DNA from: an uncultured Clostridia bacterium
GTDB lineage: Bacteria; Bacillota; Clostridia; Christensenellales; UBA1242
Direction of reading: 5' to 3'
DNA: 39,215 nucleotides
Assembly (NCBI GenBank): GCA_937914725.1
Contig: CALDMJ010000216.1
Coordinates: 1 to 39,215, forward strand
The notes below the pieces were generated by a model. It worked only from the letters and a program-made list of their open reading frames with translations, was not told the origin of the DNA and made no database searches. Both the position numbers and the translations under genes were made by a program. Shown piece after piece: positions 1 through 24,455 of the stretch. How positions within the stretch are numbered: the first letter of the stretch is position 1; the number at the start of each line of letters is the position of its first letter.

Positions 1-3000
1 CCCTCAGTTGAAAGCGGACGCGACAGAGTGCCATTTGAAACAAGAATTTCATCCGTTTGCCCATCGACAATATCAAATCCTGTCACCAAAAAGTCTACAA
101 CGTGCAATTTATTTACTATTCTTGATTTTGTTTTAACGCCATTGATTGTGCGTTCGACAACAAGTTCTACGTTAAAAGTCTTTCCTTTTTCAAACGCGGC
201 GTTTGCAAGAATGACATATTTGATTGTTTGTCTTTCGCCCGAAATAATTGTGTTTCCAGTTTTCACGAGCGAAACGCCTGCGACAATTGCACCGCTTGCA
301 TCCGTTATTTTGCTTGAAATGCCCGATGTTTCGTTGACAGCGCTATCGGTAACAACGGTAAATTCGTTGTTCACTTGATGTGCAACATAATATTCGTGCG
401 CAACACTCTTATATGTTCTGCCATTTGTCAAGTCAAATGTTAAATATGGCGCTTGCAAAGCGGTCAATTCGATTGTTTTTGTGATATAAGGCGCACTCTC
501 CCCCTCTTTGAATGCTGAAATCGTGATTGTGAACACTTGTCCCGTTGTGATAGAGGAGCCTGTAACGGTGCGCAAGAAAATTCTACCATCAAAGGCATAC
601 TCAAAGTTGCCGTCCTCTTTCAAGCGTTTTGTAGATTGACGTTTGACACTGATACCATTTGTGATGATTTGAGTATTTTCAACTCTTGTATCATAGTTAT
701 TTGCGTCGATATTGTAGTAAACTTGCTCAAAAGTGATTATGTCATTTTGAACAGTGCTACTTGTGATTTCAAGTCTATCGAATGTACTATAGTCGGGATA
801 TAAATTTACAACAAGCAATCCATATTGCCCTGGGATGATTTTGGTCGAAACTTCTTCCCCAGCGCCCGTCAAGTTTGCGTCAAAATCGGCGCCGTCGTTG
901 TAGTGATTTACCAAAATATTCGAAAGAGATTGCGGAACAAGCGTCAAAGTGAACGATTTTGTTGCTTTTGTTCCATTTGCATATGTCACACCAAATTCGA
1001 TTGTAAATGCTTCTCTTTGCAAAATTGCAAGGGCCCCATCTACATTTGTGCTTGGTGCAATTTCGAATGTTAATGTCTTTGTGTTTTGCGTTTCGTCAAA
1101 TTGGGCTTGCAAAATCTCCATTGCAAACTTTGTATTTTGGGAAATTCCTTTGTTCATAACGCCTTGTGAGAGATCATATTCTTCACACTCTTTGACGTTG
1201 CCATCATTGTCTAGTTTGCTACCATTGTAGATTTTGACAAAGTCGATGATGTCATTTTTTTGGTCAGTTGTCAATGTGACGTCATAATTTAGTGTTGTGT
1301 CAGGCATTATTTCTTCACTTGCGCTTTGCAAATTGAAATTGCTTAAACCCTCGTAAATTATCAAGTCGAAGTCATAGTATATGTCAGACAAAACAACTTT
1401 TGTTTCCACAATTTCGGTGCCGCTGGAGAATTGCGCTGCGATATATGGATATATTCTTGCGCTTGTTGTGATGGCTGAAAGTGCGGTCATAATTTGACTT
1501 GCATCATATCTCACAAAAAACGACTTGTCATTATTTACTTCAAATCTATCAAATGTGACGATGTTTGCTTCGTCGAATGAGAACAAGTATCCACCGCTAG
1601 CAAGTGCTGCAAACTGACTTTCAACATCGTTGTTTGTTTCGACATTGTAGTTTGAAATCTTAAAATCGAAGGTTCCGTCAAGCGCGACTTTCAGTTCTTT
1701 ATAAGTTTGGTTGTTTTCAACGCGCTTATTGATGTTGTCGACATCAATGCTTGTGATGCCATAAACGACAAACACTTCGACGTCACAGAACACGCTTTCG
1801 TCAAGGTCACTGGCAAAGCGTAACACTGCGCGCCCTTGCCCGAGCGTTGTCATTGAAGCCCCTTCAACTTTCAGGACGTTTTGTCCCTCAATTACCTTGA
1901 CAATGACATTTTTGTTGCGGCTAGTGTTTGGCGAAACGACGATTGAGAACATATCTTTTAGATAGTAAACATTATTCGCTTCTGTGGCGTTTGCACCAGT
2001 ATTGTAGAACAAAATCAACTGCGTGTCACTGTTCTTGTAATATCTGTTGCCATCACCCATACGGCCGCGGTTTGCCTTGTTAAGTTCGCCGAGGACTCTT
2101 GCTTGCAAACTTGTTGGGCTTTGTGTAAGCAAAAGTTCCCCGCGGGCACTTTCTTCGGCAGCGTCGATTTTGATAATCTTCTTACCAAAGTTGATGCCTG
2201 ATTTCGTTGTGAAATCACTAGCATTTTCACTGTACATTGTTTGATTTGTCGTTGTAAAATCTCCAACATATGAAAGTGAATAGCAACTAGAGATTGCGCC
2301 GTTGTTTGAATCAACAAATATGTGCTGGATGTCTGTATTCAATTGGACATTTGCAAAACTTTTAGCAATTGTGCCGTCATTTCTACCTGCAAATGCGCCA
2401 AATTGGCTAATGTTGCTAGCTGAAATAGCGAAATCGGCATTTTCGTTGTTATTCTTCCTTTGCGCTGAATAGGAATTGATGAAACTATACTTGATTGTTC
2501 CTTCAGCGTTCGCACCGACGACGCCGCCGTAGTTAGCAAACATTGAATCGTCGTAGTTTTCAAAGTGCACCTTATCGTCGCAAATCTCGACGATGCCGAA
2601 TGTAATTGTTCCCGCAACTGCGCTTGACGCAAGTCTTGCGTTTTCGCCGACGATACCGCCCGCGAATTTGTTCGCTTTGATAAAGCCTGTGAATCTAACA
2701 CTAACTATGCTGCCGTAGTTGACTGCACTAATTCCGCCGACATATTGTGGGCTTGTAATCGTTGCTTTTGAATAAGCACCCGTAATTGATGCGAAGTTTA
2801 CGGCGCTAATTCCGCCGATAATCGCGTTTTGCGTATGGTTTTCAAAGTAGATGCTTGAGTTTACAGTTTCGTCGTTATAGTCGACATTGTAGTTTGTCTC
2901 ACCGCTTGATGGAGTTAAGAGGTCGCCGACAAACACAAATTGCCCGACAATGTTCTTGTGGTTTTCGCCGCATACGCCGCCAACTCTTACATTTGCAGTT

Positions 3001-6457: not shown

Positions 6458-6487
6458 ATTATACCAATTTTGCGGCATTCAAGTCAA
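6458..6487 (-). promoter_or_regulatory. Sigma-A-type promoter for the giant lipoprotein gene
   Basis: On the minus strand: TTGACT (6487-6482), an 18-nt spacer ending in TGG, then TATAAT (6463-6458). This is an extended -10 and predicts a 5-prime UTR of roughly 110 nt before the ATG at 6341. Confidence 0.6.
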
Positions 6488-6496: not shown

Positions 6497-6683
6497 GGGC
6501 TTTCCAGCAAAAAAAAGGTACATAGTCAATTAACTATGTACCAAATAACATATAGTGCCACAGACTAAACCTGCAGCAGCGGGCTTTCCCGCAAAAAAAG
6601 CACATAACCAATTAACTATGTATCCAAATTGTATAGTGCCACAGTACAAACCTGCAGCAGCGGGCTTTGCCACTGCTGCAACG
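6497..6683. repeat. Tandem direct repeat, 2.2 copies of an 81-84 bp unit, intergenic
   Basis: Unit A is 6497-6580 and unit B is 6581-6661. A partial unit C starts at 6662. Every unit starts with GGGCTTTCC (GGGCTTTGCC in unit C), and units A and B end with CCTGCAGCAGC. Units A and B are roughly four-fifths identical by eye. Confidence 0.85.
6509..6542 (-). terminator. Intrinsic-terminator-like hairpin inside repeat unit A
   Basis: Perfect 10-bp stem ggtacatagt (6517-6526) / actatgtacc (6533-6542) with a 6-nt loop. On the minus strand it is followed directly by T8 (complement of A8 at 6509-6516). The equivalent hairpin in unit B has decayed to about 5 bp. Confidence 0.6.
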
Positions 6684-6685: not shown

Positions 6686-6710
6686 TAAAAAGAACGGCAA
6701 TTTGCCGTTC
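6686..6710 (-). terminator. Rho-independent terminator of the sipW/TasA-like operon
   Basis: Hairpin gaacggcaa/ttgccgttc (6692-6710) is followed on the minus strand by TTTTTAT. It lies about 55 nt downstream of the stop at 6765. Confidence 0.7.
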
Positions 6711-6764: not shown

Positions 6765-7691
6765 TCATTTTGTTGCGTCCCTCATAATCCCTTTCCAAGT
6801 TTCAGGAGCACTGTTCCAGCAAGCGTCCGTTTGTGAACTCAAGTTTGAAACATTTGCATTGACAAACTTAATTGTAACTTTGACCGTAACCGACTTGTTT
6901 GCGTATTGATTTGCTATAGCCGATTCAGCAGTGACAGCATATTGCTTAAACAACACAGCAGTGCTTGTTGAACCACCGCTCTTCTTGGTAAGTACATTGT
7001 TATAATAATAATATTTAGTAGTAGCAGTTTTCCCTGTGTCGTTAATTTCTTCCTTAATATTGCCTACAGTCCAAAAACTCTCTCTCAATGTTGGCGTCGC
7101 AACCATTTCTATAGGATAAGTTGTGTCCTCTTGGTGTTCTTCATAGATTTCTATCTTGAAGCAAACAAAAACATCCCCTTCGCCGTTGTTGCGAACAGTA
7201 AGTCCCCTCTCAATCTTGTCGCCCATATTGTAATCTTTGACTTCATCACTGAATTTGCGAACAGTTTCACCATATGTCATACCCTCGTCAATGTCGACAG
7301 TGATTTCTTTTTCATCGCTGCTATTTAAAAGCATAGGAACAACAACTGCTGCGCCGACCGCGATTGCCGCGATAAGCACAACCAAAACAAGTGAAAATAC
7401 AAGTTTTTTGACAGTTCTTTTCTTTTTAGGGTCTTGACCGCCTTTTTTGCCTTGCATCGCGCTCTGAAGTTCGGCTTGCTTCGCTTCCTCAGTCGAAACA
7501 TCCGTGCTTGGTGCAGCCTTCGGCGCTTTAGGTGCGGCTGCAGCGGCGTTATCTGCCGTTGTTGGTGCTTTCTTTGTTGCTGGTGCTTTTTTAGGGGCAG
7601 CAGGTTTTGATGTAGCGGTTGTTGATGCCGCTTTCGGCGCGCTCGCCTTTGGTGCGGCGGGTTTGGTTGGTTTGATTGGTTCGTCTTCCAC
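6765..7691 (-). CDS. TasA/camelysin-like (SipW-dependent class) secreted protein with a long Pro/Ala/Lys-rich N-terminal extension and one TM helix
   Basis: 308-aa ORF with a GTG start at 7691, 7 nt after AGGAGG. Residues 1-96 are low complexity (KPAAPKKAPATKKAP). The TM helix is about residues 97-122. The ectodomain has TasA-like signatures: GDKIERGLTVRNNGEGDVFVCFKIEI, and a C-terminal YYYYNNVL...SVTVKVTIKFVNA pattern shared with the neighbouring 186-aa protein. Confidence 0.75.
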   Translation of the reverse strand: MEDEPIKPTKPAAPKASAPKAASTTATSKPAAPKKAPATKKAPTTADNAAAAAPKAPKAAPSTDVSTEEAKQAELQSAMQGKKGGQDPKKKRTVKKLVFSLVLVVLIAAIAVGAAVVVPMLLNSSDEKEITVDIDEGMTYGETVRKFSDEVKDYNMGDKIERGLTVRNNGEGDVFVCFKIEIYEEHQEDTTYPIEMVATPTLRESFWTVGNIKEEINDTGKTATTKYYYYNNVLTKKSGGSTSTAVLFKQYAVTAESAIANQYANKSVTVKVTIKFVNANVSNLSSQTDACWNSAPETWKGIMRDATK

Positions 7692-7801
7692 GATTTTTCC
7701 TCCTACTAACTTTACTTTCTTTATTTTATACTTTTTTTAAATTCAAAGCAAGCGTTTTGACGCACTTTTTGCATATTTTTGTCGATTTGCGGCATATTTC
7801 G

Positions 7802-8362
7802 TTATGGCAGGGCTGAAATCCATTCTTGTGGTGCGCCGACAAAGTTTGCCGAAATCATACTTTTGGTCGCTTGCATAACATCGACATTGACGCTAACATT
7901 AAGTCCGTTTTCATACACTGTTTCGTCATTTGTCGGGTCGACATCAAAACTTTCAATCAGTTTTACCGTTTGCCCTACGGCAAAAACGCCTTTATAGTAG
8001 AAGTAATTGCCCGACTGTAAAAATTTGCTTGAGTCGTAGTTGACGCTCAATGCGGCGTTGTCGGTAATGCTAAAGCGCAGGTAGCAATCAATCAAATTTG
8101 TCGTGTTTTTGCCCAATTTATCCCGCGCATTAATGACGCTGACGCTCTCATCAATTTGTCCACCCGTGTAGTTTGTGAGGTTTGCAAACAACGGCAAATC
8201 ATTGACAAACTCGAAGTTTGCTTCGCCAACGGTGATTGTTCCTTGCACTTGTGTGTTGCTGCTATAGTACGAAAAACTTGGTAATGTGGCGTATAAAACC
8301 ATTACTGCAAGTATTGCAACGCTAAGTAGTGCTATTATCAAATTTCCTATTTTTTCACTCAT
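7802..8362 (-). CDS. TasA/camelysin-like small secreted protein (SipW-dependent class)
   Basis: I prefer the ATG at 8362 (MSEKIGN..., AAGGTG 4 nt upstream) over the GTG at 8377 used by the track. The protein has an N-terminal hydrophobic signal-anchor, LIIALLSVAILAVMVLYATLPSFSYYSS. Typical family features follow: GTITVGEANFEF, and YFYYKGVFAVGQTV...LNVSVNVDVMQA near the C-terminus. It lies directly downstream of sipW. Confidence 0.75.
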   Translation of the reverse strand: MSEKIGNLIIALLSVAILAVMVLYATLPSFSYYSSNTQVQGTITVGEANFEFVNDLPLFANLTNYTGGQIDESVSVINARDKLGKNTTNLIDCYLRFSITDNAALSVNYDSSKFLQSGNYFYYKGVFAVGQTVKLIESFDVDPTNDETVYENGLNVSVNVDVMQATKSMISANFVGAPQEWISALP

Positions 8363-8408
8363 ATCACACCTTTTCACATTAGTGTGTTACAAAATGAAAA
8401 AAATATGC

Positions 8409-8430
8409 AAAAAGACTGCGAATGCAGTCT
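8409..8430 (-). terminator. Hairpin plus T-run between sipW and the first TasA-like gene (possible partial terminator or attenuator)
   Basis: Stem agactgc (8413-8419) / gcagtct (8424-8430) with a 4-nt loop. A-run and T-run flank it on both sides. It sits in the 84-nt gap between the sipW stop (8447) and the next start (8362). Confidence 0.5.
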
Positions 8431-8446
8431 TTTTGTTGTTAGATTA

Positions 8447-9292
8447 TCATTTTTTTGTAGTATTGTTGTCGTTTTTTGTAGGTATGTTGTCATTTTTTGC
8501 ATTTTGGGCTTCATTATTCGCATTCACGTCGACATTGCTTACATTTGAATTTTCTTGCAGCATTGCTTGCAATGATTGCTCCTCTTCAGGGGTGAGTTTT
8601 TCAAATGCTGCTTTGCTGAGGCAAATCTTCAGCTTGCCGCCTTTGTTATCTTGAACGCCTACTTGCAAGTCCTTAGTGGAATTATCATTGACAACTTTGC
8701 TATTTGTTTCTACAACATTGCCGTTTGGCGTTGCGGCGGCTTTCTTTCCCTTATTATTTTTGATTATCATTGCAATAAGATACCACAGGCATATGATTGC
8801 GATAATGCTGAATATGACGACAAATAAGTTGTTTTTGATGAACAAGAACAAAATCCCAACAACGGGTATTGCTAGATGCACTTTGCCGATAATTTGCGAC
8901 TGCGGCACTCTTTCGTTAGAACCCTCGCCGTTTGCGTCACCGTGCGTGATAAATATTAGTTTGCCTGTTTCTTCGTCAGTTTTTATTTCAATGACGCGGT
9001 GCGTAACCGAAATTTCGTCGGCGTCCGTTCCCCCGTCCGCGCTAGGCCAAAACATAACAACGTCACCAACTTTGATTTTTTCGGGAGCAATTGACTTGAC
9101 AAGCACGAGGCTGCCGGGGTTGATTGTTGGTTTCATACTAGGCGTTAAGACTACCGCAGGGCGAAAGCCGATTGCAAACAATATGACACATACTAATAAT
9201 AGCCCGATGAGCAAAATTGACAGCGCCCAATAAAAGTAATCGCGGACACGCATTTTCTTGTCACTAACGTTGTTTTTGTCTTTAGAATCCAT
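8447..9292 (-). CDS. sipW: Signal peptidase I, archaeal/ER-type (SipW family), with a roughly 100-aa C-terminal tail
   Basis: 281 aa, with ATG at 9292 preceded by AGGAAG. Motifs seen: N-terminal TM; LTPSMKPTI (catalytic Ser box, SM-x-PT); GDVVMF; SVTHRVIEI (His box); ITHGDANG (GDAN box); GKVHLAIPVVG followed by a second TM. Residues 179-281 form an Asn/Lys-rich tail. Confidence 0.85.
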   Translation of the reverse strand: MDSKDKNNVSDKKMRVRDYFYWALSILLIGLLLVCVILFAIGFRPAVVLTPSMKPTINPGSLVLVKSIAPEKIKVGDVVMFWPSADGGTDADEISVTHRVIEIKTDEETGKLIFITHGDANGEGSNERVPQSQIIGKVHLAIPVVGILFLFIKNNLFVVIFSIIAIICLWYLIAMIIKNNKGKKAAATPNGNVVETNSKVVNDNSTKDLQVGVQDNKGGKLKICLSKAAFEKLTPEEEQSLQAMLQENSNVSNVDVNANNEAQNAKNDNIPTKNDNNTTKK

Positions 9293-9314
9293 AAAAATAT
9301 CTTCCTTGTTGGTT

Positions 9315-9342
9315 ATTTTAACATTATTTTGTGCATTTTCAA
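9315..9342 (-). promoter_or_regulatory. Candidate promoter of the sipW operon
   Basis: On the minus strand: TTGAAA (9342-9337), a 16-nt spacer ending in TGT, then TAAAAT (9320-9315). It lies about 20 nt upstream of the RBS and ATG. Confidence 0.45.
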
Positions 9343-9533: not shown

Positions 9534-9562
9534 TTGACATTTGGCGCGTATTTTGTTATAAT
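9534..9562 (+). promoter_or_regulatory. Consensus sigma-A promoter of gltX
   Basis: TTGACA (9534-9539), a 17-nt spacer ending in TGT, then TATAAT (9557-9562). An AGAGG RBS precedes the ATG at 9592. Confidence 0.8.
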
Positions 9563-11119: not shown

Positions 11120-11223
11120 AGACAAAACATTGTCCATTTCGTCTCAACACAATTGCAGTTTCTATACTACAATTGCGGGTTATGTACTCAATATTATTGC
11201 AATTTGCATACTAACAAAAAAGA

Positions 11224-11255
11224 GCAAACAGCGGGGGCGCGCTGTTTGCCTTTTT
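11224..11255. terminator. Bidirectional GC-rich terminator between the convergent gltX and giant gene
   Basis: 10-bp stem gcaaacagcg (11224-11233) / cgctgtttgc (11240-11249). T5 follows on the plus strand and an A-run precedes it, which reads as a T-run on the minus strand. It lies about 115 nt downstream of the giant-gene stop at 11364. Confidence 0.75.
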
Positions 11256-14300: not shown

Positions 14301-17300
14301 GTAGTACAGGTAATACTTTTGCGCTTGCGAATCCTGCAAGTAGGCGCGCAAGACGACGTTTCCGCTCATACTTTGCAAACCAGCGGTGCTTTGTCCTATT
14401 GTGTAGTGTAAATATGCAAATGAATCGTCCTTATTATCATTATTGTATATATATGCCACTACGTTTGAGGACGAATTTGCAGTTGCTTCATTAAAAGTTC
14501 CGCCTTGACTGATGCCAATTGATAGATTTACTGGAACAAGCGTCCCTTTCATAATATATGAAAAGTCAAATGGCTGTGAACTTTTTGTTGCGGACGCAAT
14601 TGGCAAATCGCGAATGAGCGCATTTGCGTTGCTTTGTTGGTCAAGTTCGCCAAGCGTTGTAATTGAAATTGCGTACTTATCAGGCAAGCCGCCGTCGATT
14701 AGCACGAGGAATGTCAGTGTGTTTGAATAACTTGTACTATTTTCACAAGGCACATATCTAAATTGCGAATAACTATAACTGCCGCCTGAAACAGAACGCG
14801 TATACAAGTCGTTGGCTGTTACAATTTTTTGACCAGCAATACTATTAACACCATATTCAATTTCATAGCATCTAACAATGCTATAGTTGCTGGCTGAGCC
14901 TGCAACGTATGCGGACGGGTCGGCTTTCAGCAACAAACTCTTTTTGTAGTTGCTGTTGTATTCGGTGCCGACGATGTCTAGTCTATAGGCAAAGTACTTA
15001 TTGTATTGCACATTTTCAAAGCTGAATGTGAAGCCCGCGACGTAGCCGTTTTTGTCGTAGACATTTGTGATTAGCGCACTTTTTACTTGGGCAAGTGTGA
15101 TGATGTAGTTATAAATAAACTCACTTTCGTCACTTTGCGCAAAGTTTTGCTCGCTGATTGAATTGAAATAGATGTTAATTTTATTATTGCTTGGGTATAG
15201 TTTACCAGTGATGTCGATATAGTAATACCCGTCGTTTTCACCGACCACTTTTTCGCCGAGTTTAACAGGCGCTTTAGTATCCTCATTGTACAATTGACGC
15301 TGATTTGCCCCGAGGTTGAACGACGGGTCACCTTGCGTGATTTTGTAGGCAACAAAGATTTGTTGAATATTCTTTTCAATGCCTGCATCCTCAAAATATT
15401 GCGGAATTTTGACCTTTATATACTCACTTCCGTCAATTTCGACAACGGACAAGTCACTTGGCGTGTTGATTTTGACGATATAGTTGTAGATCAATTGTTG
15501 CCCCGCACTTTCGAGATAATAGGTAATTGTTTCATCTGAGTCTGCTGCGGCTGCACCTGTTTTTGCCATACTCTTTAGCGTGAACGTGTAGTTTGCAGGT
15601 CTTTTCATAATTTGGTCGAAGATTTCTGCATTTTCCGTCGAACTAAATGTAATGCTTGTTTTGTTTTGAACGTTCACTGTTGGGATAACTAGCGAAGCGC
15701 CGCGGTTGTAGAGCCCGACGATGTCGAGTTGGTACTCGGCATTGTAGAATTTACTCAATTCCGTTTGCCACTCAAGCACGATTTTGCTCATTCTTGTTGT
15801 GGCGGTTGCTTGACGCACTTGTTCGCTGCCACTCTCATTGTCATAGACTTTGACTGCGACGGAGAGCGATGGCGCGCAATAGAATGTGTCGTGGTCCAAC
15901 GTTTGCGCATCACTGTCAAGCGTATAATTGTTTGCGTTGCCGAGCGCAGTCACGGTGTATGTGTAACGCCCCGGTTCGGCAAACTGCCAAATAATGTGGA
16001 GTTTGCCTTTGTTGTCGCTATACGCAAACGAAACCTTATTATATAGCGCAGTGCCGCTTAGCATATCATATATTCCGCTTTTGCCGACTTTAAAATCAAC
16101 GACATAGTTCATATAGGTTTTGTCATTTGGGTTTATTGTGTCCGATTTGCATTCGGATTGTCCCGTGATTGTCAATCTATAGATTGCATCAACATTATAG
16201 TTGACAACTTTGCGCAGTTCTTGGTCATAGTCAATGACGTTATCGACGTTTGTGATGACAATCTCGACGCCTTTCTTTGCTGAGTCATTGCCCGTCAAGT
16301 TAATATCGAGGTCCTTCACATCAAAAATTGGTGTTTTGATTTTTTTTGCAAACGCTTGTTTCGTGATTGTTACTGTTCCAGACTCGTAATAATATCTTGT
16401 AGGTGAGGCGTTGCACTTTAGGCTGACCGTGTTGTGCCCTGCAAACAAAATGTTTTCAACTTCATAATATAGATATCCGTTTTCGGCAATGATTTTGTCA
16501 GGTGTGAAGTCTTGTGAGTGCTTGCCGCCTTTAGTTTTGTTAGGATCTGTGACAACACCTGTTTCGCCGACGACACCTTCGGAAATTATTGTTACGTTGT
16601 AGGCGTCGATGATGCTATAGTAGTCACGAATGTGTGGGTGGATTGGCTCATCCCACTTTATATAATGTTTACCATCGTCACGCTTAACAAGTTCAAGACC
16701 TGTTGGCGTCATATACCTTAGGTAGTAGTCATAACGCAAGAAGTTGGTTTGATATACTGACTCTAGGTAGTAGCCTTGCTCGGCGGACTTTGCCTTGATG
16801 CTGATTGCACCTGTCATATAGATATTAAAGCCGTCCGCTTGCAGTAGTTCGACGAGCGAGAACGTGAGCGAAATTTTGCGCTCGCCGCCCTCGGTGCGTT
16901 CACTAATTTTCACGCGCGTACTAACATTAACTTGCGCAGTGCCGCCTGTCATATAGCCGCTGGCGGTCACCATTTCTCCGATTAGTTCATTGCTAAACGG
17001 TAGTGTCAAGTAATACTCACGCTGGTTAATGAGCAAAACATAGGTAAATTCGCTTGCGCGGTTTATATATGTTTCGGCAAATTTTACATCAAATGTGAGC
17101 CACATTTCTTGCATTTCAAGCCCTTCGTCATTAATCCTTTCTTTGCCTTCGGTGTCGATGACGAGGAGGCTGAGAGCCAATGTTTCGGCGCGCAATTTAT
17201 GGTCATAGGTGATTGTGACTTCCTTGCTTTCTTTCATCACAAAGTGGACTGTTTTACTATTGACAGTAAACGTTTTTTGATAACCGTTGATTTTTGCAAT

Positions 17301-20300
17301 AACGGTGTATGCACCCGGCTTGCTGTTAATGACACTTGTGACGTCGATTTCAAGCGTTGTGGAGTCATATCTTGTCGCGACGTATTTGTCGTAGGTGCTG
17401 ATTTGCTCCCCTGCTTCGTTGTAGAACGTAAGCGTGTACGTCAAATTTAAGATTTCGTCGCTAGTCATCCCATTGACTTCAAAGTCGTCAAATCTAAAGA
17501 ACTGTTTGTTTCTTTGGTCGTTGTGGTAGATTGTGGCATTTGTCAATGCGATAAACGCTGTGTCATAGTTATATTCGGCGTCATCAGATTGTGAACTGTC
17601 GATGAAGTGTTCCGTATCATTATTTCGCGTGATGACATAGACGATGTTGTCCCCGCCCCACAAGTGTTTTGTGATGTCGATGCCTGTTGTCGATGAAGAA
17701 TGCGCGATTTTGACGATTGAACCATTGTTGAGGTATACTTCGTAGTATAGATTCTTTAAGTATCCGCTTGCATAAACATAATTTAGTTCAGTCACTTTAT
17801 CAAAATCAAGCAAAACCTTGTCGCCGCTTTCGTAGATGCGCAAATTTTTGACGGCGTCAAGTTTGATAACGACGTCGTATGTTTCAATAGCGGCGTCTTT
17901 TGACTCGTCAAATGCGCCGTTTGCGCTAGCATAGACGTAGATGCGCCAAGCACCTGCCTCGCATACAATGTCGGTGAGGTCGCGGGTCATTGTGTTGATG
18001 TCGGGGATTTCTTCCGCCAAAATTTCTTCGCCGTCGAGGATATAGTAGACTACGATTTTGTATGTTTGCACTCCCAATGTTACGCGATTTGCACTAGCAA
18101 GTGCGCTGAACGCTTCAAAGTTTTGCGGCGCTGACCACGATGCTATTAGGTTTGTTCCGCTGTCCGAGAGCACAAAACTTGTTGGTGCAGAGAACTGCAA
18201 AGTGTAATCGAACTTGTAAAGTGTTGAGTCACTGTTTGAGAGCCCGTAGACTGAATCGGTTGCGATGAGTCTAATTTCATAGTCGTCTTTTGGCATTTTG
18301 TTTTGGAAAAGTGCGGATATGTCGTACTTTTCTTGTCCCGCAGGCAATGTTGAAACCTTGGCGTTGTCAATCCAAAGTTCATAACTTGTTGCAAAGTCGA
18401 CTTGACGGAACGACAGCCAAATGTGGTAGTTTGTGCCGTCCGCAATTTGCGTTTTGTCGTCTTGCTCAATCAATATATCTTCGACATTTTGGAGTTTGAA
18501 CGTAAAGTTTGACATTGCGGTGCTATAGTATGTATCGAGATAGTACGCACCGAGGTCGCCGACTATTCTAAGGACAAATAGGTTTTTACCGCCGATATTC
18601 AAGAATTTTGCATTGATGTCGATATATCCGCTTGAGTAGGCAAACGTTTCGCCATTTTCAAGGTACAACTGACTGTTGATACGCAAGGAATATAGACTTG
18701 CGGTGCTAATTTCACTAAATCTCAATCTCACGAACGGTGTATTGCCGATTTGAGATGCCGACAAACTTGGATCGTCGTGAATGTGGTAGTTTGTAAACTC
18801 ATAAGGTTCACTTTCCGCACTTTCGAGGCTTGACCTTGTTTCGGCGACCTTGATTGTGGCAAGGTACACGCCGCCGTCGATGTATTTCAACACGTCCGTT
18901 ATATCTGCGGTGCAGTTGCCGTTAGATATATCAAGGTCATTGACGGAAAGCTCGATTGTTTTGATTTCGGTTTTCGCTTCGTCATTTGAATAGAACTTAA
19001 TGATATATTTTTCCGCGCCACTGACTTGCCCAAATTTTGCGTAGTAACTTAGTGTTGTTGGGTATTCATCGATATTATATTCGTAGACAATTTCAAGCCC
19101 GAGCGGCACTTCAAACTGCCCTTTATAGCGGTAAGTAGCATATTTTGTATATGTGCTTTCGCCTGTGATATATGCGCCGTCGCCGTTGGTTTTTGCCCAA
19201 ACGGTGTATGTGCCATAACCATTATTCGGGTCTTTGAACAAATTAATGAGGTCAAAATACGTCTTGTTTGTTGTATATTCACCAACAAATGCACCGTCCT
19301 TTTCAACTTTGACTCCATACATTTTTGCGCCTTCAACTTCATTCCACTGCGCATAAATGCGAGTTGCGAGTGTGGCAACATCACCGTTTGAAATAATTTC
19401 AACCCATTCGACACCGCCAAGTTCCATACGGTTATAGTAATCTTCGCTTTCGCCCCAATCACTGTCTTTGTGGTAGGTGTCGCCAAGCGCTTTTGCGCGC
19501 GCGGTGTAGGCGCCGTATTGTGGACTGCTAAAGTCGATATAGGCATCCGTATTTAATGTATATGTTTGTGTGAAACTATTAATTTTGAGTTCAAGTTCAT
19601 AGCCTGTAGCAAATGCAATGTTTGAAACTTGAATTCTCAAACTGCCGTCCACTTGCTTGATAAACTCAACCGTTGGTGCGCTAAGCGCGACAGTCCATTC
19701 AAAATCGTATTCCGTATTTGGTGATTTTGCGTAGACGACCTCCCCATTTTCGCCAAGGACTTCGTTTGCGCAAAGCTTGATGTTGTAAATGTCGTATTCG
19801 TCGGTAAATTCGTCAATCATTGCGCTGAATGTGACAATGATTGAATCGGCACCGATTTGCGCATTCACGTTTTCAACGTTGATGACAGCATTATAGATAA
19901 TTGCGCCCTTGCTTTGTCTTGTAACAAGCAGAGTATAATCTTCGGCATTGAGGACTTTGCTGAAGATAATTTCCAAGTTCTTGCTTTCCGTCATTGTTAT
20001 TTTTTCAATGATTGGCGCGGAAAGTTCGCTGCCGAGCGTTGACATATTGACAGTTTTTTCGTCCGAATTATTATAGTACGCGAGGTCGCGGATTGCAGCA
20101 GCCCTTTCGGTATCCGAAAGTTCGGTGCTGTCCTTATAATCTTGCACGCTATCAAATGCGCCGAGAATTGTTGCGACAACCTTATAATACTTTGCGTTTG
20201 CAAGACCCTCAATTTTAAATTCGGTTTGCTTGCTAATTATTTGGAGGACGGCTTCTTGCCCCTCTTCAATGTCGCTGTCGATACTATCGATTTCGTAGAA

Positions 20301-23300
20301 AGCGTATTTTATAAGCGCGCTTTCATAAATTGCGCCTTCAGGCTTTGTGATAACAATATAGTTTTCAATTTGTCCGTTCTCATTTTTGCGCTTATCGACG
20401 TTGAGTGACACGAGCGCGTCAAGTTTCACGGTATAGAACACAGTCAATTCGTTTGACCAGTCGGAATCGTCCCAATATACTCCGTCGCCGAGTTCTTTGA
20501 CTTTGATTTTGTAAATTCCAAGCCCTGTGATTTCCATTGTGTTGGTAAGATTGATGATTGTTGACTGGATGTTTTCATATACAAGAGATTTTGTTGCACT
20601 GCCTGAGAGAGCACTTTCGCTTTCGTAGTACTCTATGTCTAATGTATAGCCTGTTCCATCGCCTTGCCCAATGATTGTCAATTTGTGCGTTTCTTGGTCA
20701 AACGTGATTGTTGGCGCGGCGAGGGCGTGCGTGAGATAGAAGTCGTAGGTTGTGTACAAACTATCATAGTAGTACCCTGTTGCGTTGACGCGGACGCCGA
20801 GCAAGAATTTGCCTGTTGTTCTATCGCCGATGACTTCCGTGAGGTCGAAACGGTTTTCGGTAACGTCGTTAGCAATCAAGTGCTCGTCCACTGAGAATGA
20901 GTATGTTTCAGCGTATGGAACAACATCCCAAACAGCGTAATACTTTCCGTCCACATTTTCGACTGTCAAGTTTGCTGGTGGTGTGAACTTGAGCCACAAT
21001 TCGTATGGCAAACTGTTGCTTGGTTCGCTTTCAAGGAAGTAGTCGTATGTTTCGGCAACAACTGCGATGTCGTATTTATTTGCGCCTTTGAAAGCGCTAA
21101 GTTCCGTCTTGATGTCGACTGTGATTTCCGCTTCCCCGTTGTCGGCGATGCCCGTTTTGATCTTTGTCCAAACATTTTCGGTTGGAAGTTTTGCGACGAT
21201 TGCGTAAGATTTTGCGTTGTTGCTTGTAGCAAACTTTGCTTCGACGCGGTTATTTCTACCGATGACGGAGATTAGGACTGGCGAATCAAGTTGCACGTAT
21301 TTCGTGTATGTATATGTGACTAGTTGCGACGGGTCAACCATATTTTTGTGCGAGAAGCTTTGCACTTCAAAGTCATAGAAGCCGTCGCCGTACACTTTAA
21401 TATATTCGCGCAAGTTTACGACGCTCAATTTGAATGAGTCGTCCGTAACTTCAATAAGCGTGTAGGTGATTGCTTTGTTTCTAAATGTGAGTTTTAGGTA
21501 TTCAAACTCCATTCGCACATCACTTGTCCACGACACTTCTTGCAAGACGTCGTCATACTTAAAGTTCGTTGGGTCGGCGAGTTTGATGCGGATTTCCGCC
21601 GTCACTGGCGTTGACCACGCGGAGTTGCCGAGGAACAATTCCTCGACTTTGCGCGTCATTGCGCTAATTGTGAATTTTCCGACGCCGCCGAGACTTGCAA
21701 TTGTTGTTGAAAGGTCTGCCCTTTCTTCATTGACAATAATATCATTTGAGACAAAACTACCGTCGTTTTGTTCAATGCTGACGCGAATTGTGTAGCCGTT
21801 GAGCGCTGTTTCAGCGCCAGTGAAGGTTAAAACCTTTGTTTCGTTGTTAAAGGTTAGGTTTGTTGGCGTTGGCTGCTTATCAAAGTACGCATATTCAGCA
21901 ACATTTGAGTATGAGGAATAGATAATTGGCGTTTCTGTGACTTCGGGTTGCTCAAGCACGGCGCGGACGCGCACTTCGTACTTGCCAAAGCCTTTGCTTT
22001 CTAAATATTCTGTAATGTCGCAGTTAGTTTTTACTGTTCCTTTGCTAAATTTAGTCGAAAGGACTTCAAAACTTGCGTTTGCTAGTTCGACAACTTGTTT
22101 TGTGCCGTCGACTGTTTGCAATTCGTGCGTTTTTCTAATTTCAACCTTATAATACTCGGCAAAACGCGTTGTTGTGAATGTTGCGTAGTAATGTACGCCG
22201 TCGTCGAGCGTTTGTTCGGTTACTTCGACGTCATTTGGCGCTTTCAAGATTGGCGTGTAGTCATATTCCTCTGCTTTGCTTGGGTCTGAATTTTCATAGT
22301 ACCCTACGCCGACTGCGGTGAGGACAATTTTGTTTTTGCCTGCCGAAATGATTGAATAGATGTCGCAGGTTGTTAGGCGCGACGTCATAATACTAATTGC
22401 GCCTGAAACTTCGCTTTCGATGCTAATGAGATAGTTAGTTGCATTTTCAACTTGCGTGAAGTAGAGCAAGACACTTTCTTCATCAACATTGTCGACCATA
22501 ACAAATCGCGGCGTTTGCAGTTTGATTTTGTTTTCAAACATCGCAACTGCGCTAAATTTACTATCCTTGTATCCAGCAGTTGCTACTTCGTCAGTGACAT
22601 TGCCGACGCATTTTACTTTAGCCGAATACTTTTTCGCGACAGTCAATGGTTCAAACTCAAAGATACTGGCATATAGACTTGAAATATCAACTTCAAATGC
22701 TACAGTTTGATTTTCGTCATCGACTGTGCTTGTCACAAATTGCGAGTAATCTGGGTTTGTCACAATGTTTGCGTATTCAACGCCGTCAAACCACAAAACA
22801 TAGTCACTTGCGCGGTAATCGCCACTAAATGAGAATATCATTGTGTTTGTTTCGCCGATTGAGCGTTTGTAGAGCGCAACATTTGTTGGCGTGTTCAAGA
22901 CGATTTGGTGCGAATATTCCGCCGTCGTTTCTTCCGATGCGCGGAAGTAGCCGCACGCATTGACGGTTATTGCAATTTTGTATGTTGTTGGTTGCGTGAA
23001 AATTGCTGAGGTGTCAAGAATTGTATCATAGACAACTTCGTTGTAGATTTCGTTGTCGTTTTCGTCAAGAATTACAACTGTATAGCCATTTTTCGGCGCA
23101 AACTTGACATCCCCTACCACATTTTGCGCTATTGCTGTAAATGTCAAATATTTTCCGTTTTCCAGAACTTCGATATTTTGAACCGGTGCGAATTGGTCGA
23201 GGACATTTAATTCAAGCACTGCACTAAAGTCACTTGTGAGGTAATAGCCGTATCCGTTGGCTTTGACCCTAATTCTAAAGTCACCGCCGATTGCGTCTTC

Positions 23301-24455
23301 AAGGTCTCGGCGCAAATTGATTTCGTTTGCGGTAGTATTCTTTTGGAAGAATGTGGTGCCCTCGCCATTAACAAGTTCGACCGTATAACTATACGCGTGC
23401 GGAACGGCGTCCCAACTAAACCACACAAGTTCGCCGTTCATTTGGTAGCGGAGTCCGTTTGGCATTGAAAGTTGTTGATAGACGTCAAAAGTAAGTGTTT
23501 CTGAATTTTCGCTTGCCAAGTACCAAATCACTTCTTCGTCTAGTCCTTGTGATTGGACATTGTTTGCGTAGACGTAAACCTCATATTCACCGATATCGTC
23601 GACATCTTGCGCGCTAAAATATATGTAGTTCGACGAAATTGGGGAAAATTTTTTTGGCTCAAGATTGCCGTGTGACAAAACCACTGTGTAGGTTTGCGCA
23701 TTTTCTACTGCGTCCCACGCAAGTTTTTTGTCCGCTTGGCTATAAATAAGATTGGTTGGAGCATTGAGCCTACCTTTCAAGCTATGCTCGACTGCAACTG
23801 AGGATGGCGATTGATTGATGAATTCGTTTTCAGCGATTGCTTTGACTGAGAATGAGTAGTTCTTTGTATAGTCAACCACAACGTCGCTGATGTCAAACTC
23901 AGTCTTGCTGACGATTGCTGTTGTCGCGGTGGAAATGTCGGCATTTTCGATAATCGTAACTTCGTACATATCCGCTCCGTCAACTTGAACCCACACGAGT
24001 TTTGCATCGTACTTATCAATTTCCGCAATTGGCTGCGCGAGAGTTTTTGTAACAACAAAGTCATCCGCAAAAATAACATCACTGTTTTTAAAACCATTGT
24101 CGGCAATTGCTTGCACGGAGATTGCATACTTCTTTGGCGATTCGACAAGGTTTGTGATGTCGATGTTCAAATCGTCCGCACCAACTTGAACGACATTATT
24201 GTCGATGCTATAGCGGTAGGCGCTGGCGTTTTTGACCTTATCAAACTTAAGGTACACATTGTCGCCCAACTTTTCTACCCTGACATTTGCTGGGTTATCT
24301 AGTTGGATGCGCGTTTGGTACGATGTTTGGAAATATATAAAAAGCCCTAATCCTGCGACCATAATCAGAAGCGCCAAAACACTCAGTGACTTTAGCCACA
24401 TTTCGCGAACCTTTATTCTTTTTTCAATTTTTGCTCTTGATTCAATCTCACTCAT
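11364..24455 (-). CDS. Giant (4363 aa) N-terminally membrane-anchored surface protein: tandem FN3-like modules plus a unique C-terminal domain
   Basis: Uninterrupted ORF from the track. ATG at 24455 has AGAGG 6 nt upstream. Residues 21-42 (LKSLSVLALLIMVAGLGLFIYF) are the only obvious hydrophobic helix. No LPXTG motif or C-terminal anchor is visible. The body is a periodic module of about 100 aa carrying the W-x-x-V-x-x-A-x-x-Y-x-V signature. Confidence 0.9.
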   Translation of the reverse strand: MSEIESRAKIEKRIKVREMWLKSLSVLALLIMVAGLGLFIYFQTSYQTRIQLDNPANVRVEKLGDNVYLKFDKVKNASAYRYSIDNNVVQVGADDLNIDITNLVESPKKYAISVQAIADNGFKNSDVIFADDFVVTKTLAQPIAEIDKYDAKLVWVQVDGADMYEVTIIENADISTATTAIVSKTEFDISDVVVDYTKNYSFSVKAIAENEFINQSPSSVAVEHSLKGRLNAPTNLIYSQADKKLAWDAVENAQTYTVVLSHGNLEPKKFSPISSNYIYFSAQDVDDIGEYEVYVYANNVQSQGLDEEVIWYLASENSETLTFDVYQQLSMPNGLRYQMNGELVWFSWDAVPHAYSYTVELVNGEGTTFFQKNTTANEINLRRDLEDAIGGDFRIRVKANGYGYYLTSDFSAVLELNVLDQFAPVQNIEVLENGKYLTFTAIAQNVVGDVKFAPKNGYTVVILDENDNEIYNEVVYDTILDTSAIFTQPTTYKIAITVNACGYFRASEETTAEYSHQIVLNTPTNVALYKRSIGETNTMIFSFSGDYRASDYVLWFDGVEYANIVTNPDYSQFVTSTVDDENQTVAFEVDISSLYASIFEFEPLTVAKKYSAKVKCVGNVTDEVATAGYKDSKFSAVAMFENKIKLQTPRFVMVDNVDEESVLLYFTQVENATNYLISIESEVSGAISIMTSRLTTCDIYSIISAGKNKIVLTAVGVGYYENSDPSKAEEYDYTPILKAPNDVEVTEQTLDDGVHYYATFTTTRFAEYYKVEIRKTHELQTVDGTKQVVELANASFEVLSTKFSKGTVKTNCDITEYLESKGFGKYEVRVRAVLEQPEVTETPIIYSSYSNVAEYAYFDKQPTPTNLTFNNETKVLTFTGAETALNGYTIRVSIEQNDGSFVSNDIIVNEERADLSTTIASLGGVGKFTISAMTRKVEELFLGNSAWSTPVTAEIRIKLADPTNFKYDDVLQEVSWTSDVRMEFEYLKLTFRNKAITYTLIEVTDDSFKLSVVNLREYIKVYGDGFYDFEVQSFSHKNMVDPSQLVTYTYTKYVQLDSPVLISVIGRNNRVEAKFATSNNAKSYAIVAKLPTENVWTKIKTGIADNGEAEITVDIKTELSAFKGANKYDIAVVAETYDYFLESEPSNSLPYELWLKFTPPANLTVENVDGKYYAVWDVVPYAETYSFSVDEHLIANDVTENRFDLTEVIGDRTTGKFLLGVRVNATGYYYDSLYTTYDFYLTHALAAPTITFDQETHKLTIIGQGDGTGYTLDIEYYESESALSGSATKSLVYENIQSTIINLTNTMEITGLGIYKIKVKELGDGVYWDDSDWSNELTVFYTVKLDALVSLNVDKRKNENGQIENYIVITKPEGAIYESALIKYAFYEIDSIDSDIEEGQEAVLQIISKQTEFKIEGLANAKYYKVVATILGAFDSVQDYKDSTELSDTERAAAIRDLAYYNNSDEKTVNMSTLGSELSAPIIEKITMTESKNLEIIFSKVLNAEDYTLLVTRQSKGAIIYNAVINVENVNAQIGADSIIVTFSAMIDEFTDEYDIYNIKLCANEVLGENGEVVYAKSPNTEYDFEWTVALSAPTVEFIKQVDGSLRIQVSNIAFATGYELELKINSFTQTYTLNTDAYIDFSSPQYGAYTARAKALGDTYHKDSDWGESEDYYNRMELGGVEWVEIISNGDVATLATRIYAQWNEVEGAKMYGVKVEKDGAFVGEYTTNKTYFDLINLFKDPNNGYGTYTVWAKTNGDGAYITGESTYTKYATYRYKGQFEVPLGLEIVYEYNIDEYPTTLSYYAKFGQVSGAEKYIIKFYSNDEAKTEIKTIELSVNDLDISNGNCTADITDVLKYIDGGVYLATIKVAETRSSLESAESEPYEFTNYHIHDDPSLSASQIGNTPFVRLRFSEISTASLYSLRINSQLYLENGETFAYSSGYIDINAKFLNIGGKNLFVLRIVGDLGAYYLDTYYSTAMSNFTFKLQNVEDILIEQDDKTQIADGTNYHIWLSFRQVDFATSYELWIDNAKVSTLPAGQEKYDISALFQNKMPKDDYEIRLIATDSVYGLSNSDSTLYKFDYTLQFSAPTSFVLSDSGTNLIASWSAPQNFEAFSALASANRVTLGVQTYKIVVYYILDGEEILAEEIPDINTMTRDLTDIVCEAGAWRIYVYASANGAFDESKDAAIETYDVVIKLDAVKNLRIYESGDKVLLDFDKVTELNYVYASGYLKNLYYEVYLNNGSIVKIAHSSSTTGIDITKHLWGGDNIVYVITRNNDTEHFIDSSQSDDAEYNYDTAFIALTNATIYHNDQRNKQFFRFDDFEVNGMTSDEILNLTYTLTFYNEAGEQISTYDKYVATRYDSTTLEIDVTSVINSKPGAYTVIAKINGYQKTFTVNSKTVHFVMKESKEVTITYDHKLRAETLALSLLVIDTEGKERINDEGLEMQEMWLTFDVKFAETYINRASEFTYVLLINQREYYLTLPFSNELIGEMVTASGYMTGGTAQVNVSTRVKISERTEGGERKISLTFSLVELLQADGFNIYMTGAISIKAKSAEQGYYLESVYQTNFLRYDYYLRYMTPTGLELVKRDDGKHYIKWDEPIHPHIRDYYSIIDAYNVTIISEGVVGETGVVTDPNKTKGGKHSQDFTPDKIIAENGYLYYEVENILFAGHNTVSLKCNASPTRYYYESGTVTITKQAFAKKIKTPIFDVKDLDINLTGNDSAKKGVEIVITNVDNVIDYDQELRKVVNYNVDAIYRLTITGQSECKSDTINPNDKTYMNYVVDFKVGKSGIYDMLSGTALYNKVSFAYSDNKGKLHIIWQFAEPGRYTYTVTALGNANNYTLDSDAQTLDHDTFYCAPSLSVAVKVYDNESGSEQVRQATATTRMSKIVLEWQTELSKFYNAEYQLDIVGLYNRGASLVIPTVNVQNKTSITFSSTENAEIFDQIMKRPANYTFTLKSMAKTGAAAADSDETITYYLESAGQQLIYNYIVKINTPSDLSVVEIDGSEYIKVKIPQYFEDAGIEKNIQQIFVAYKITQGDPSFNLGANQRQLYNEDTKAPVKLGEKVVGENDGYYYIDITGKLYPSNNKINIYFNSISEQNFAQSDESEFIYNYIITLAQVKSALITNVYDKNGYVAGFTFSFENVQYNKYFAYRLDIVGTEYNSNYKKSLLLKADPSAYVAGSASNYSIVRCYEIEYGVNSIAGQKIVTANDLYTRSVSGGSYSYSQFRYVPCENSTSYSNTLTFLVLIDGGLPDKYAISITTLGELDQQSNANALIRDLPIASATKSSQPFDFSYIMKGTLVPVNLSIGISQGGTFNEATANSSSNVVAYIYNNDNKDDSFAYLHYTIGQSTAGLQSMSGNVVLRAYLQDSQAQKYYLYYKNIRDSKTDKIEILKWQGSYIASTNGVVITYDATTKKYVAYIDLFVINDGVLKKNANYQLYVSAYNNSKITNAQNKEEYIYDSTEINSVSRYASRFDKVVKPNVTYDSGSRRFVIANFSRIENIVNMRLGNSPYNFVVNLSQNGSNTTTMSIASGTITTRRSDVVPYKMGTTLYIPYDFVKKELDERGYSVGETEIKMYVDVEERGYIWDSDYSDEISFAYKAYIGFPNFAITESEYYGGQYATTGNRSHVYSEYEFNNSSELARTIMSRYTLNTTAYVARQNWSLLIEVEYYGNSKTTTINVVSGQNNDLTVFYRRNAKNATGMIGDLLGGSPSYGSYDFSMRILGVYDRYENLVSSDIVEFDESSYSRTFDVKYKLFKPQYAELVLNDSESEIECLNVSYRSDSVVQRLYDSSRMYYSIERESRREKSGSVGLSYKDVRYRSTVTFSGVKNSGTYTALVCISSDNDYIFDSDDYETESVFIPFVPGIKTATIKVSSTNEVTLKIEVGKLTDPDGVKFESSTLSAGSFEFELELINAATGISTGKTYTGTVTDIQAQLNADFSRLMSNTTGTTFAPGAYYCKVKTTNTPTIGGYTYKESAEFYVNEATCYRSNNQSSLQSRASDCKYTVAYSNWNKNTSFDVLRTSNTFKGLVTGGRINPILDGSDVALNFVQYRSVAKDHTTKEVVISSSDNMVSNSNRKELLFSTVSPSNWPDEFVLGTYSRATQTKSNEKWDMYLFIRLDETSLKNRFGALSFKSGKTIKDYIVLPSNAAKETLGTQEYVVYAGPNDVAKRQRLSPTLNLTVSTSEVTGTFGWRVGWNYYAEWRQGNNIGYIDRTEVKFYYYVTTNEKGSIDDPFKGTDILSEWQTGGIIGGSISWAWDKWNFVHQISNFRTSILDGNDKGDTKCKQYLGDFDDKWVDFATKRRITDDKVWVVSQVYSNTTEYDDSAVVHTDNWDGAKPFEKVGSKTAIPTYET
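12477..24296 (-). repeat. Array of roughly 35-40 diverged FN3-like modules of about 100 aa (protein-level repeat)
   Basis: Recurrent module starts have the form L-x-x-P-x-N-[LV]. The second-strand signature recurs: LVWVQVDGADMYEVTI, LAWDAVENAQTYTVVL, FSWDAVPHAYSYTVEL, AVWDVVPYAETYSFSV, AQWNEVEGAKMYGVKV, LYFTQVENATNYLISI. I counted at least 29 modules in the first approximately 2900 residues. I spotted no long near-identical DNA repeats by eye. Confidence 0.65.

Follow-up and report, generated by a model that had tools for sequence, protein, structure and literature searches.

A resident surface-protein locus with a divergent SipW/TasA-type module and two giant proteins in a genus of uncultured gut Clostridia

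The window analysed here, 39,215 nucleotides long, is the whole of contig C216 (CALDMJ010000216.1) in the assembly GCA_937914725.1 of an uncultured Clostridia bacterium from the Christensenellales family UBA1242 (genome G000 in this work; 1.21 Mb in 216 contigs, with a guanine-plus-cytosine (GC) content of 39.6%). Its left part holds a group of surface-protein genes: a signal peptidase gene of the SipW type, two genes for small TasA-like proteins and, on either side of them, two genes for giant proteins. Comparison with related genomes gives good support to the view that this is a vertically inherited surface-protein neighbourhood of a genus of uncultured gut Clostridia with genomes of about 1.2 Mb. 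The locus probably comprises several separate units, in which SipW and its two small companions would make a short fibre while the two giants would reach the cell surface independently and act as long-reach adhesins. The genes concerned are the following.

3..6341, minus strand: lipoG, the first 2,113 codons (5' part) of the gene for a surface lipoprotein of about 5,940 aa; it runs off the contig.
6765..7691, minus strand: T308, a bitopic TasA/BsaA-like protein; an N-terminal region of about 96 aa rich in Pro, Ala and Lys leads to a single membrane helix, and the C-terminal domain is a homologue of T191.
7802..8362, minus strand: T191 (186 aa), a very divergent subunit of the BsaA/TasA/camelysin family, predicted to be cleavable, with an ATG start as in its orthologues.
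8447..9292, minus strand: sipW, encoding a signal peptidase I of the archaeal/ER type that has a second membrane helix and a tail rich in Asn and Lys.
9592..11049, plus strand: gltX, glutamyl-tRNA synthetase (PF00749, E 1.7e-96; also PF19269).
11364..24455, minus strand: giant4363, encoding 4,363 aa: a predicted signal anchor at the N-terminus, 24 or more fibronectin type III (FN3) modules, then a C-terminal third that is more divergent and has a hypervariable tip.

Read from right to left along the minus strand, the order is h338 and h374 (two small genes described further below), giant4363, sipW, T191, T308 and lipoG, with gltX on the plus strand between giant4363 and sipW. We compared the window with the contigs of nine members of the genus (G001–G009), which are metagenome-assembled genomes of uncultured gut Clostridia, some of them from human faeces. 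The full order, hisS-like gene, lipoG, T308, T191, sipW, gltX, giant, h374, h338 and, further along, argS, serS and tex, is retained in G008, whose housekeeping proteins are 91–98% identical to those of G000, and in G006 (54–92% identical). Six other genomes (G002, G003, G004, G005, G007 and G009) yield pieces of the locus that are broken by contig ends yet consistent with this order, and gltX itself is found in the same position in G002, G003, G004, G006, G008 and G009. A comparison of synteny had been proposed in the first-pass annotation of this DNA; the order proved to be held in all genus members with an assembly that extends over the region, with T308, T191 and SipW identities down to 35–50% across the syntenic genomes. 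Such retention of synteny through the genus indicates that the locus is inherited. Since a hisS-like gene follows lipoG in G008, the locus has aminoacyl-tRNA synthetase genes on both flanks.

Two assemblies call for comment. G001 is uninformative, as every gene of the region, gltX included, is missing from it. G007 was considered as a natural loss of sipW, T191 and T308 with both giants kept; this interpretation was rejected because the 3' end of T308 lies at the very end of contig C14 and the true gltX orthologue is unassembled too, so that the absence is an assembly gap.

It is very improbable that positions 1–24455 represent a horizontally acquired adhesin island. The GC content of this part (42.3%) is somewhat above that of positions 24456–39215 (38.5%), the C-terminal tip of the giant differs sharply between close relatives, as it would after cassette exchange, and the spacers are filled by dispersed repeats. 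However, the per-gene GC content, GC at third codon positions and codon fit all lie inside the central range of the genome: relative to 459 long open reading frames, the surface genes fall between the 58th and 81st percentiles in GC and between the 24th and 79th in codon fit, and no gene of the window exceeds the housekeeping gene gltX, which lies in this region, in GC content. Protein family searches of the real genes of the window detected neither integrase nor transposase domains, and its intergenic gaps are too short for a gene of either kind; no tRNA was found in the window. The same genomic location throughout the genus, as described above, also argues against acquisition as an island. 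These results agree with the first-pass annotation, which had described neighbouring surface genes on the minus strand interrupted only by gltX, with ordinary base composition and without integrase, transposase or flanking tRNA, and had concluded that this was a resident cell-envelope locus and not a recent island; the genes, strands and coordinates that it gave are all confirmed.

The sipW product matches the archaeal-type signal peptidase model TIGR02228 with 92.8 bits against a cut-off of 51.85 (E 2e-26), and PF10502 is matched as well. The equivalog model for the Bacillus enzyme, NF046067, gives 56.5 bits against a cut-off of 190, which places the protein in the same type and in a different orthologue group. 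Eight orthologues conserve the SM-x-P, THRV and GD[AN]N boxes that contain S52 (TPSMKPT), H98 (THRV) and D119 (HGDAN); these boxes are those of the Ser/His catalytic type that has no Lys. A housekeeping peptidase gene of the LepB type is encoded elsewhere in the genome, on contig C8 (84.4 bits), so that SipW is, judging by these profiles, an extra, dedicated archaeal-type signal peptidase beside it. A second SipW-type gene, of 400 aa, lies in the region C93:12466-16940; an insertion parts its two peptidase halves, and it is preceded by genes for secreted proteins of 824 and 203 aa. Split forms of this kind, 350–500 aa in length, recur across the family.

Directly downstream of sipW are T191 and T308, which by homology traced via intermediate sequences are very divergent proteins of the BsaA/TasA family. 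A T191 profile built from 14 close homologues retrieved 80 proteins at E<=0.001 among 1.84 billion. Among 61 aligned relatives, 29 match TIGR04090 (BsaA; best E 6.8e-21), 26 match PF12389 (Peptidase_M73) and 13 match TIGR04088, the SipW-cognate signal. In T191 a degenerate S-F-S-Y-Y-S...G-T-I-T-V-G stands in the columns of the motif typical of the family, T-x-A-x-F-[ST]...G-x-[IL]-x-[LV]-G, and the small residues at positions −3 and −1 are kept in the genus. At the predicted cleavage site P28, S29 and S31 are invariant in the genus, and L-P-S-x-S-Y-[YF] is invariant or nearly so in eight orthologues. The best PDB sequence matches of the T191-family profile are TasA entries, 8aur and 5of1 (E 0.045 and 0.28; both weak), with alignments that cover the mature N-terminus and the C-terminal motif ...yqG..i.l.f.feA.Q. 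Because the TasA matches align from the mature N-terminus, T191 is predicted to be cut after S31, that is, between L-P-S-F-S and Y-Y-S. A PDB profile search with a shallow T191 alignment gave nothing relevant.

The C-terminal domain of T308 (residues 151–304) is related to the T191-family profile with an hhalign probability of 96.7% (E 4e-10), and its match to TIGR04090 is weak (14.3 bits against a cut-off of 60). The same architecture is kept in eight orthologues, in which the low-complexity part varies in length. No SipW-cognate signal motif was found after the membrane helix of T308. On the precedent of BsaA, TasA and TapA, the likeliest division of labour is that T191 would be the cleavable, polymerising subunit and T308 a nucleator or an anchored base. 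T191, by its homology to these proteins (TasA and BsaA), would be a SipW substrate, cut after L-P-S-F-S, and the N-terminal strand freed in this way would allow the subunits to polymerise by donor-strand exchange. T308, predicted by homology to share the fold of T191, would stay in the membrane behind its long basic cytoplasmic tail, most likely at the base of the short fibre. In known systems SipW is required for BsaA export and polymerisation (PMC7395162), TasA fibres assemble by donor-strand exchange (PMC9674648) and TapA complements a strand (PMC10151520).

The genome of G000 contains at least five more TasA-like genes elsewhere, on contigs C137, C184, C147, C115 and C160. The copy on C137 has the classic signal G-L-T-G-A-F-F-T, and a counterpart is found in a pth-mfd-prsA-like context in G019 and likely in G012.

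Several points weigh against the proposed roles of SipW, T191, T308 and the giants. T191 itself falls below every curated cut-off (14.9 bits against 19 for TIGR04088; no match in Pfam). Its structure model has a mean predicted local distance difference test (pLDDT) of 66.5, and Foldseek returned weak beta-sandwich matches, none of them at E<=0.001, without recovering TasA. Given the further TasA-like genes and the second SipW-type gene in the genome, it is adjacency that pairs T191 and T308 with this SipW. The signal-anchor or cleaved status of T308 and of the 4,363-aa protein was judged by eye rather than by a trained predictor, and the boundaries of the transcription units are drawn from motifs and conservation.

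The module bears comparison with two characterised systems. The operon sipW-bsaA-bsaB-bsaC(-bsaRSD) of Clostridium perfringens, the BsaA of which belongs to the family TIGR04090 (PMC7395162, PMC11580942), likewise begins with a dedicated SipW-type peptidase followed by small secreted BsaA/TasA-family proteins, and it is the BsaA model that 29 of the 61 T191 relatives match. In contrast to that operon, T191 fails the curated models and its signal motif has drifted to S-F-S-Y-Y-S, the paralogue T308 is predicted to be membrane-anchored behind its basic N-terminal region of about 96 aa, and no two-component regulator is present here. The C. perfringens internal terminator follows bsaA (PMC7395162), whereas the candidate here follows sipW; partial read-through would result. 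Also unlike the situation in C. perfringens, a giant surface-protein gene lies on each side of the module, and a search of the 1.2-Mb genome that carries it detected no sortase. Within the Bacillus subtilis operon tapA-sipW-tasA, the product TasA of which forms donor-strand fibres (PDB 8AUR, 5OF1; PMC9674648, PMC10151520), the type of SipW matches that seen here, although the NF046067 score remains below the equivalog cut-off, and there too a main subunit has an accessory or anchoring protein beside it. No PDB sequence matches the T191-family profile better than TasA, but this match is weak and the fold was not confirmed by the model. Unlike in B. subtilis, the accessory protein is a TasA-like paralogue and not a beta-sandwich of the TapA type, and the gene order differs.

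Neither giant appears to depend on SipW. The remainder of lipoG is found on contigs C190, C134, C168 and C66, and full-length orthologues are open frames of 5,846–6,077 aa, in line with a protein of about 5,940 aa. Its signal peptide ends in the lipobox L-S-A-C (N-terminus MKKLYALLITFLIGVACTLSAC followed by G), and nine orthologues keep L-[SAT]-A-C and the G after it without exception. Because the lipobox is invariant, the expected route is through Lgt and LspA (signal peptidase II) rather than SipW, and the product should be a lipoprotein processed by signal peptidase II; lspA is encoded on contig C113 (97.1 bits). The only Pfam match on lipoG is a weak one to Big_2.

The N-terminus of giant4363 consists of about 25 charged residues followed by one membrane helix, which would act as an uncleaved signal anchor. 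A hidden Markov model trained on the protein itself finds 24 significant modules of about 85 aa. A structure model of the module, made from the alignment of the internal repeats, reached a pLDDT of 93.3 and a predicted TM-score of 0.84; in Foldseek all of its top 50 matches are FN3 domains, with TM values up to 0.71, and the PDB profile matches are led by FN3 chains. The Pfam FN3 models do not match giant4363. The structure model thus confirms the fibronectin type III fold of the modules, at least 24 of which would form a stalk. Orthologues were found only within the genus. Identity to the G008 orthologue is 92% at the N-terminus and decreases towards the other end, first to 57% and then to 26% over the last ~360 residues (11364–12450), against the 91–98% of housekeeping proteins, which suggests that the tip is under diversifying selection or has undergone cassette replacement. 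This distal end would look like a fast-evolving, target-binding tip under diversifying pressure.

The first-pass annotation had pointed to a likeness between FIYFQTSYQ, which follows the hydrophobic N-terminus of giant4363, and LPSFSYYSS in T191. This likeness is not conserved and the link to SipW that it hinted at falls away: behind the membrane helix of the giant, conservation is limited to Y-x-[QR]-x4-T-R-x2-L (LVYNRVAWETR in G005, FVYLQATDETR in G009), whereas T191 conserves L-P-S-x-S-Y-[YF]. The sequences give no support to SipW-dependence of the giants.

By their look, both giants would be long-reach adhesins. In this they resemble SiiE of Salmonella (PMC6272769), which also has several thousand residues, tens of immunoglobulin- or FN3-like beta-sandwich modules and a distinct distal end. 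Unlike SiiE, which relies on type I secretion, the proteins described here would be anchored in a monoderm by a lipid or a signal anchor at the N-terminus. There are also four such genes: together with a 2,058-aa lipoprotein and a lipoG paralogue of about 4,750 aa, the two giants of the window occupy about 51 kb, or about 4% of the 1.2-Mb genome. The 2,058-aa lipoprotein, which is encoded at C204:4338-10514, ends in ...YPKLIWES.

The surface genes appear to be transcribed separately. We identified the following candidate signals and associated elements.

6458..6487, minus strand: lipoG promoter candidate (TTGACT, 18 nt, TATAAT, extended TG; scan score 11/12).
6497..6683, minus strand: copies of a dispersed intergenic repeat, one with a perfect hairpin followed by U8 (6542-6517).
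6686..6710, minus strand: candidate intrinsic terminator of T308, a 10-bp stem (GAGAACGGCA/UGCCGUUCUU) followed by UUUUU.
7720..7770, minus strand: promoter-like block upstream of T308, GCTTG[CA]TTTGAATTTAAAAAAAGTATAAA[AC]T.
8408..8435, minus strand: hairpin and U-tract between sipW and T191, a candidate internal terminator or attenuator (−17 kcal/mol, z −7.6).
9315..9342, minus strand: sipW promoter candidate (TTGAAA, 16 nt, TAAAAT with TG; scan score 10/12).
9534-9562, plus strand: gltX promoter of perfect consensus (scan score 12/12).
11095-11114, plus strand: gltX terminator.
11223..11250, minus strand: terminator of the 4,363-aa gene (−19.6 kcal/mol, z −4.9, then U6), which reads as a terminator on the plus strand too.
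24527-24550: near-perfect AT-rich palindrome TATAAAAATAATATTTTTATA in the leader of the giant, kept in four genomes and unique in the G000 genome.
24559..24588, minus strand: promoter candidate of the 4,363-aa gene (TTGACT, 18 nt, TAAACT with TG; scan score 9/12).

Conservation of these elements stands out from their surroundings. The lipoG promoter, TTGAC[TA]T...AAAATTGGTATAAT, is invariant in G000, G003, G008, G006 and G005, and the spacer around it is unalignable. The promoter of the giant, TTGACTTT.T.TGTCGA..TTTGGTAAACT, is conserved together with blocks of its ~100-nt leader in G000, G003, G008 and G006, again with unalignable spacer next to it. The block upstream of T308, which contains a −10-like TATAAAAT, is nearly invariant in five genomes, including G005, the T308 of which is just 35% identical; a conserved −10-like element also precedes T191. 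The sipW promoter is conserved in close relatives only (G003 and G008). Among the hairpins, the stem of the T308 terminator belongs to a −35 kcal/mol fold (z −4.9), the terminator of the 4,363-aa gene is conserved in G008, and the hairpin between sipW and T191 is retained in G003 and G008, the latter with about 400 nt of inserted repeats beyond it. The first-pass annotation had counted three independently transcribed units. Separate transcription is well supported by the promoter and terminator candidates of each unit and by these conserved footprints, but the count may need revision, as the presumed sipW operon probably consists of more than one unit, which may give five in total rather than three.

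The palindrome in the leader of the giant could be an operator or an RNA element. A role as an operator shared between units was considered and rejected: the palindrome occurs nowhere else in the genome, so that there is no sign of a common regulon.

Dispersed short repeats crowd the spacers at 6497-6683 and 9400-9480 and that between sipW and T191 in G008. The hairpin ahead of the lipoG promoter (6542-6517; −15 kcal/mol, z −7.2) is supplied, together with its U8, by a repeat core, TACATAGTTAAT, with 29 occurrences in the 1.2-Mb genome; a second spacer repeat, TTGTCATTTCGACC, occurs 34 times. The number of repeats upstream of lipoG varies among G000, G003 and G008, and there are none in G006 and G005. 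Several of the metagenome-assembled genomes are broken between the contigs carrying T191 and sipW.

Whether the giants and the fibre module belong together functionally was examined across the family. SipW-type genes are present in 48 of the 58 genera sampled. We fetched 20-kb stretches around one SipW-type gene in each of 20 other genera, scoring as a giant any open frame of at least 1,500 aa within 10 kb; 20 LepB-type loci, from 18 of the same genomes and two others of the family, served as the control. Such a frame was found near SipW at nine of the 20 loci and at one of the 20 LepB controls (Fisher p 0.008, a value that overstates the case because related genera are not independent samples). 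At six loci (G141, G053, G055, G118, G060 and G103) the giant, of about 2,700–3,170 aa, abuts sipW on the same strand, as it does in G019 (2,656 aa), the stretch of which was fetched separately. A lipobox is found on a complete N-terminus in five of these seven giants; the frames in G141 and G103 run off the fetched stretch. Past sipW there follow three to five proteins with G-[AT]-T-F-A-W-F-T signals, a T308-like protein and a lipoprotein with a transglutaminase core. This cassette of giant, SipW, TasA-like and transglutaminase-like proteins is present in eight other genera, and we found no publication on it.

The locus in the window and the cassette, both from one bacterial family, have a good deal in common. 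In each, TasA-like proteins come after a SipW-type peptidase, and giant surface proteins of the FN3, Big_2 or GLUG type adjoin; among the TasA-like proteins of the cassette is one that resembles T308 in the long stretch of low complexity on the N-terminal side of its membrane helix. In contrast to the cassette, the locus is split by gltX and its units have promoters of their own. We considered whether it is the family cassette with gltX inserted, since the genes seemed to follow one order in both (giant, sipW, TasA-like, anchored TasA-like, large FN3 protein), and rejected this interpretation for three reasons. The cassette giants are orthologues of the 2,058-aa protein C204_4338_10514, which sits away from sipW in this genus (on a different contig in G008 and G006); upstream of sipW in the window are instead gltX on the opposite strand and then a signal-anchored giant that is not homologous to the cassette giants. 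There is no counterpart of the transglutaminase-core gene, as none was found in the window and the only such open reading frame, a distant one, is on contig C78. Finally, the SipW tree does not join the two: the clade of the genus (support 97/99) is sister to the SipW of G082 (80/81) and lies outside the weakly supported cassette group (60/77), in a tree with many long branches.

These observations bear on two opposite interpretations of the neighbourhood. According to the first, the giants are tied to the SipW/TasA-like module, either because SipW is needed for their maturation or because they are mounted on, or nucleate, the T191/T308 fibre, so that all would form one attachment organelle. 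We consider this unlikely. In its favour are the adjacency kept throughout the genus, the excess of giant frames near SipW over LepB loci, the seven family loci at which a giant abuts sipW on the same strand (five with a complete lipobox N-terminus) and the presence of TasA-like genes near lipoG-like giants in G019 and G023. Yet the invariant lipobox of lipoG points to signal peptidase II, and the conserved motif behind the helix of giant4363 is unlike the SipW-cognate one. The giant that abuts sipW elsewhere is the orthologue of the C204 protein, the SipW of the genus groups outside the cassette enzymes, and the p-value is inflated by the relatedness of the genera. Moreover, G013 and G017, each 99% complete in nine contigs, have lipoG-like giants and no SipW-type match.

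The second interpretation, under which the adjacency has no functional meaning and three or more unrelated surface units are still neighbours only since the genus is young and its genome is rarely rearranged, is possible and in our judgement doubtful. It would fit the conserved promoter in front of every unit, the different export routes (LspA, signal anchor and SipW), the equal synteny of the flanking housekeeping genes and the housekeeping gene gltX inside the cluster. In 15 other genera, SipW-type genes and lipoG-like giants show no association either: both are present in four, SipW only in five, the giant only in three and neither in three. Against it stand the family-wide enrichment of SipW genes in the vicinity of giant genes and the order of genes, which is held at 35–50% protein identity with the intergenic DNA wholly replaced. 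A locus of several inherited units, with a short SipW-dependent fibre and two giants exported on their own, is the reading that we retain as probable. Cooperation between fibre and giants is possible within it, and some functional link receives indirect support from the family-wide adjacency of SipW and giant genes, which mostly involves a different giant. We found no paper in the literature linking SipW modules to giant adhesins.

The reduced-genome Christensenellales of family UBA1242 have been proposed to be obligate symbionts or parasites of other cells (PMC12306168). Genomes in the family are of about 1 Mb, and this genus invests about 4% of its DNA in four giants, two of them next to a fibre module with its own peptidase. 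It is conceivable, and again on the unlikely side, that SipW, T191, T308 and the giants make up one attachment apparatus by which these sortase-less Clostridia with reduced genomes hold on to a partner cell or a host surface. A membrane-anchored TasA-like polymer would then form the base, FN3 stalks of more than 100 nm would extend from the cell, and hypervariable tips would choose the target, with selection holding SipW modules and giant genes together across the family even after rearrangement. If the parts do cooperate, attachment in this uncultured and widespread gut lineage would most likely have its molecular basis here, with partner specificity marked by the hypervariable tip of the FN3 giant. 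If they form one apparatus, fibres of the TasA type would be tied to an obligately partner-dependent lifestyle rather than to a biofilm matrix. The locus is inherited, not mobile and distinct from the canonical cassette of the family; by their sequences, its small genes belong to the SipW/TasA/BsaA kind as a very divergent member, unusual in its predicted anchored paralogue.

The rest of the window is occupied mostly by housekeeping genes. To the right of h338 lie two Zn_peptidase_2 paralogues, a U32 peptidase gene, argS, serS, tex, an ASCH gene and deoC. T-boxes precede aminoacyl-tRNA synthetase genes in many Firmicutes. In this window, which has three such genes (gltX, argS and serS), an Rfam scan of the whole length found no T-box leader or other family at the gathering score, including at 9293-9591, 33462-33487 and 34790-34797 and upstream of argS and serS.

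Immediately upstream of the giant are two further genes on the minus strand.

24633..26928, minus strand: h374 and h338, a pair of hypothetical proteins of the cytoplasm.

Neither these nor h142 and h221 gave a usable Pfam or NCBIfam family, even at relaxed thresholds. The h374 gene is found upstream of the giant wherever the region is assembled (G003, G004, G005, G006, G007, G008 and G009), and h338 is present in four of those seven genomes (G003, G004, G006 and G008). In h374 the N-terminal ~120 aa are conserved and the C-terminus is coiled-coil-like; the protein may be a regulator. The 495-aa open reading frame at 25912-27399 is over-long, as its orthologues in G008, G004 and G006 are of 334–363 aa and start near its residues 130–160, which indicates a protein of about 338 aa. 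The two Zn_peptidase_2 genes (PF04298) form a tandem pair on the plus strand at 27010-28595, with a mutual identity of about 27–29%, and both are kept in the relatives.

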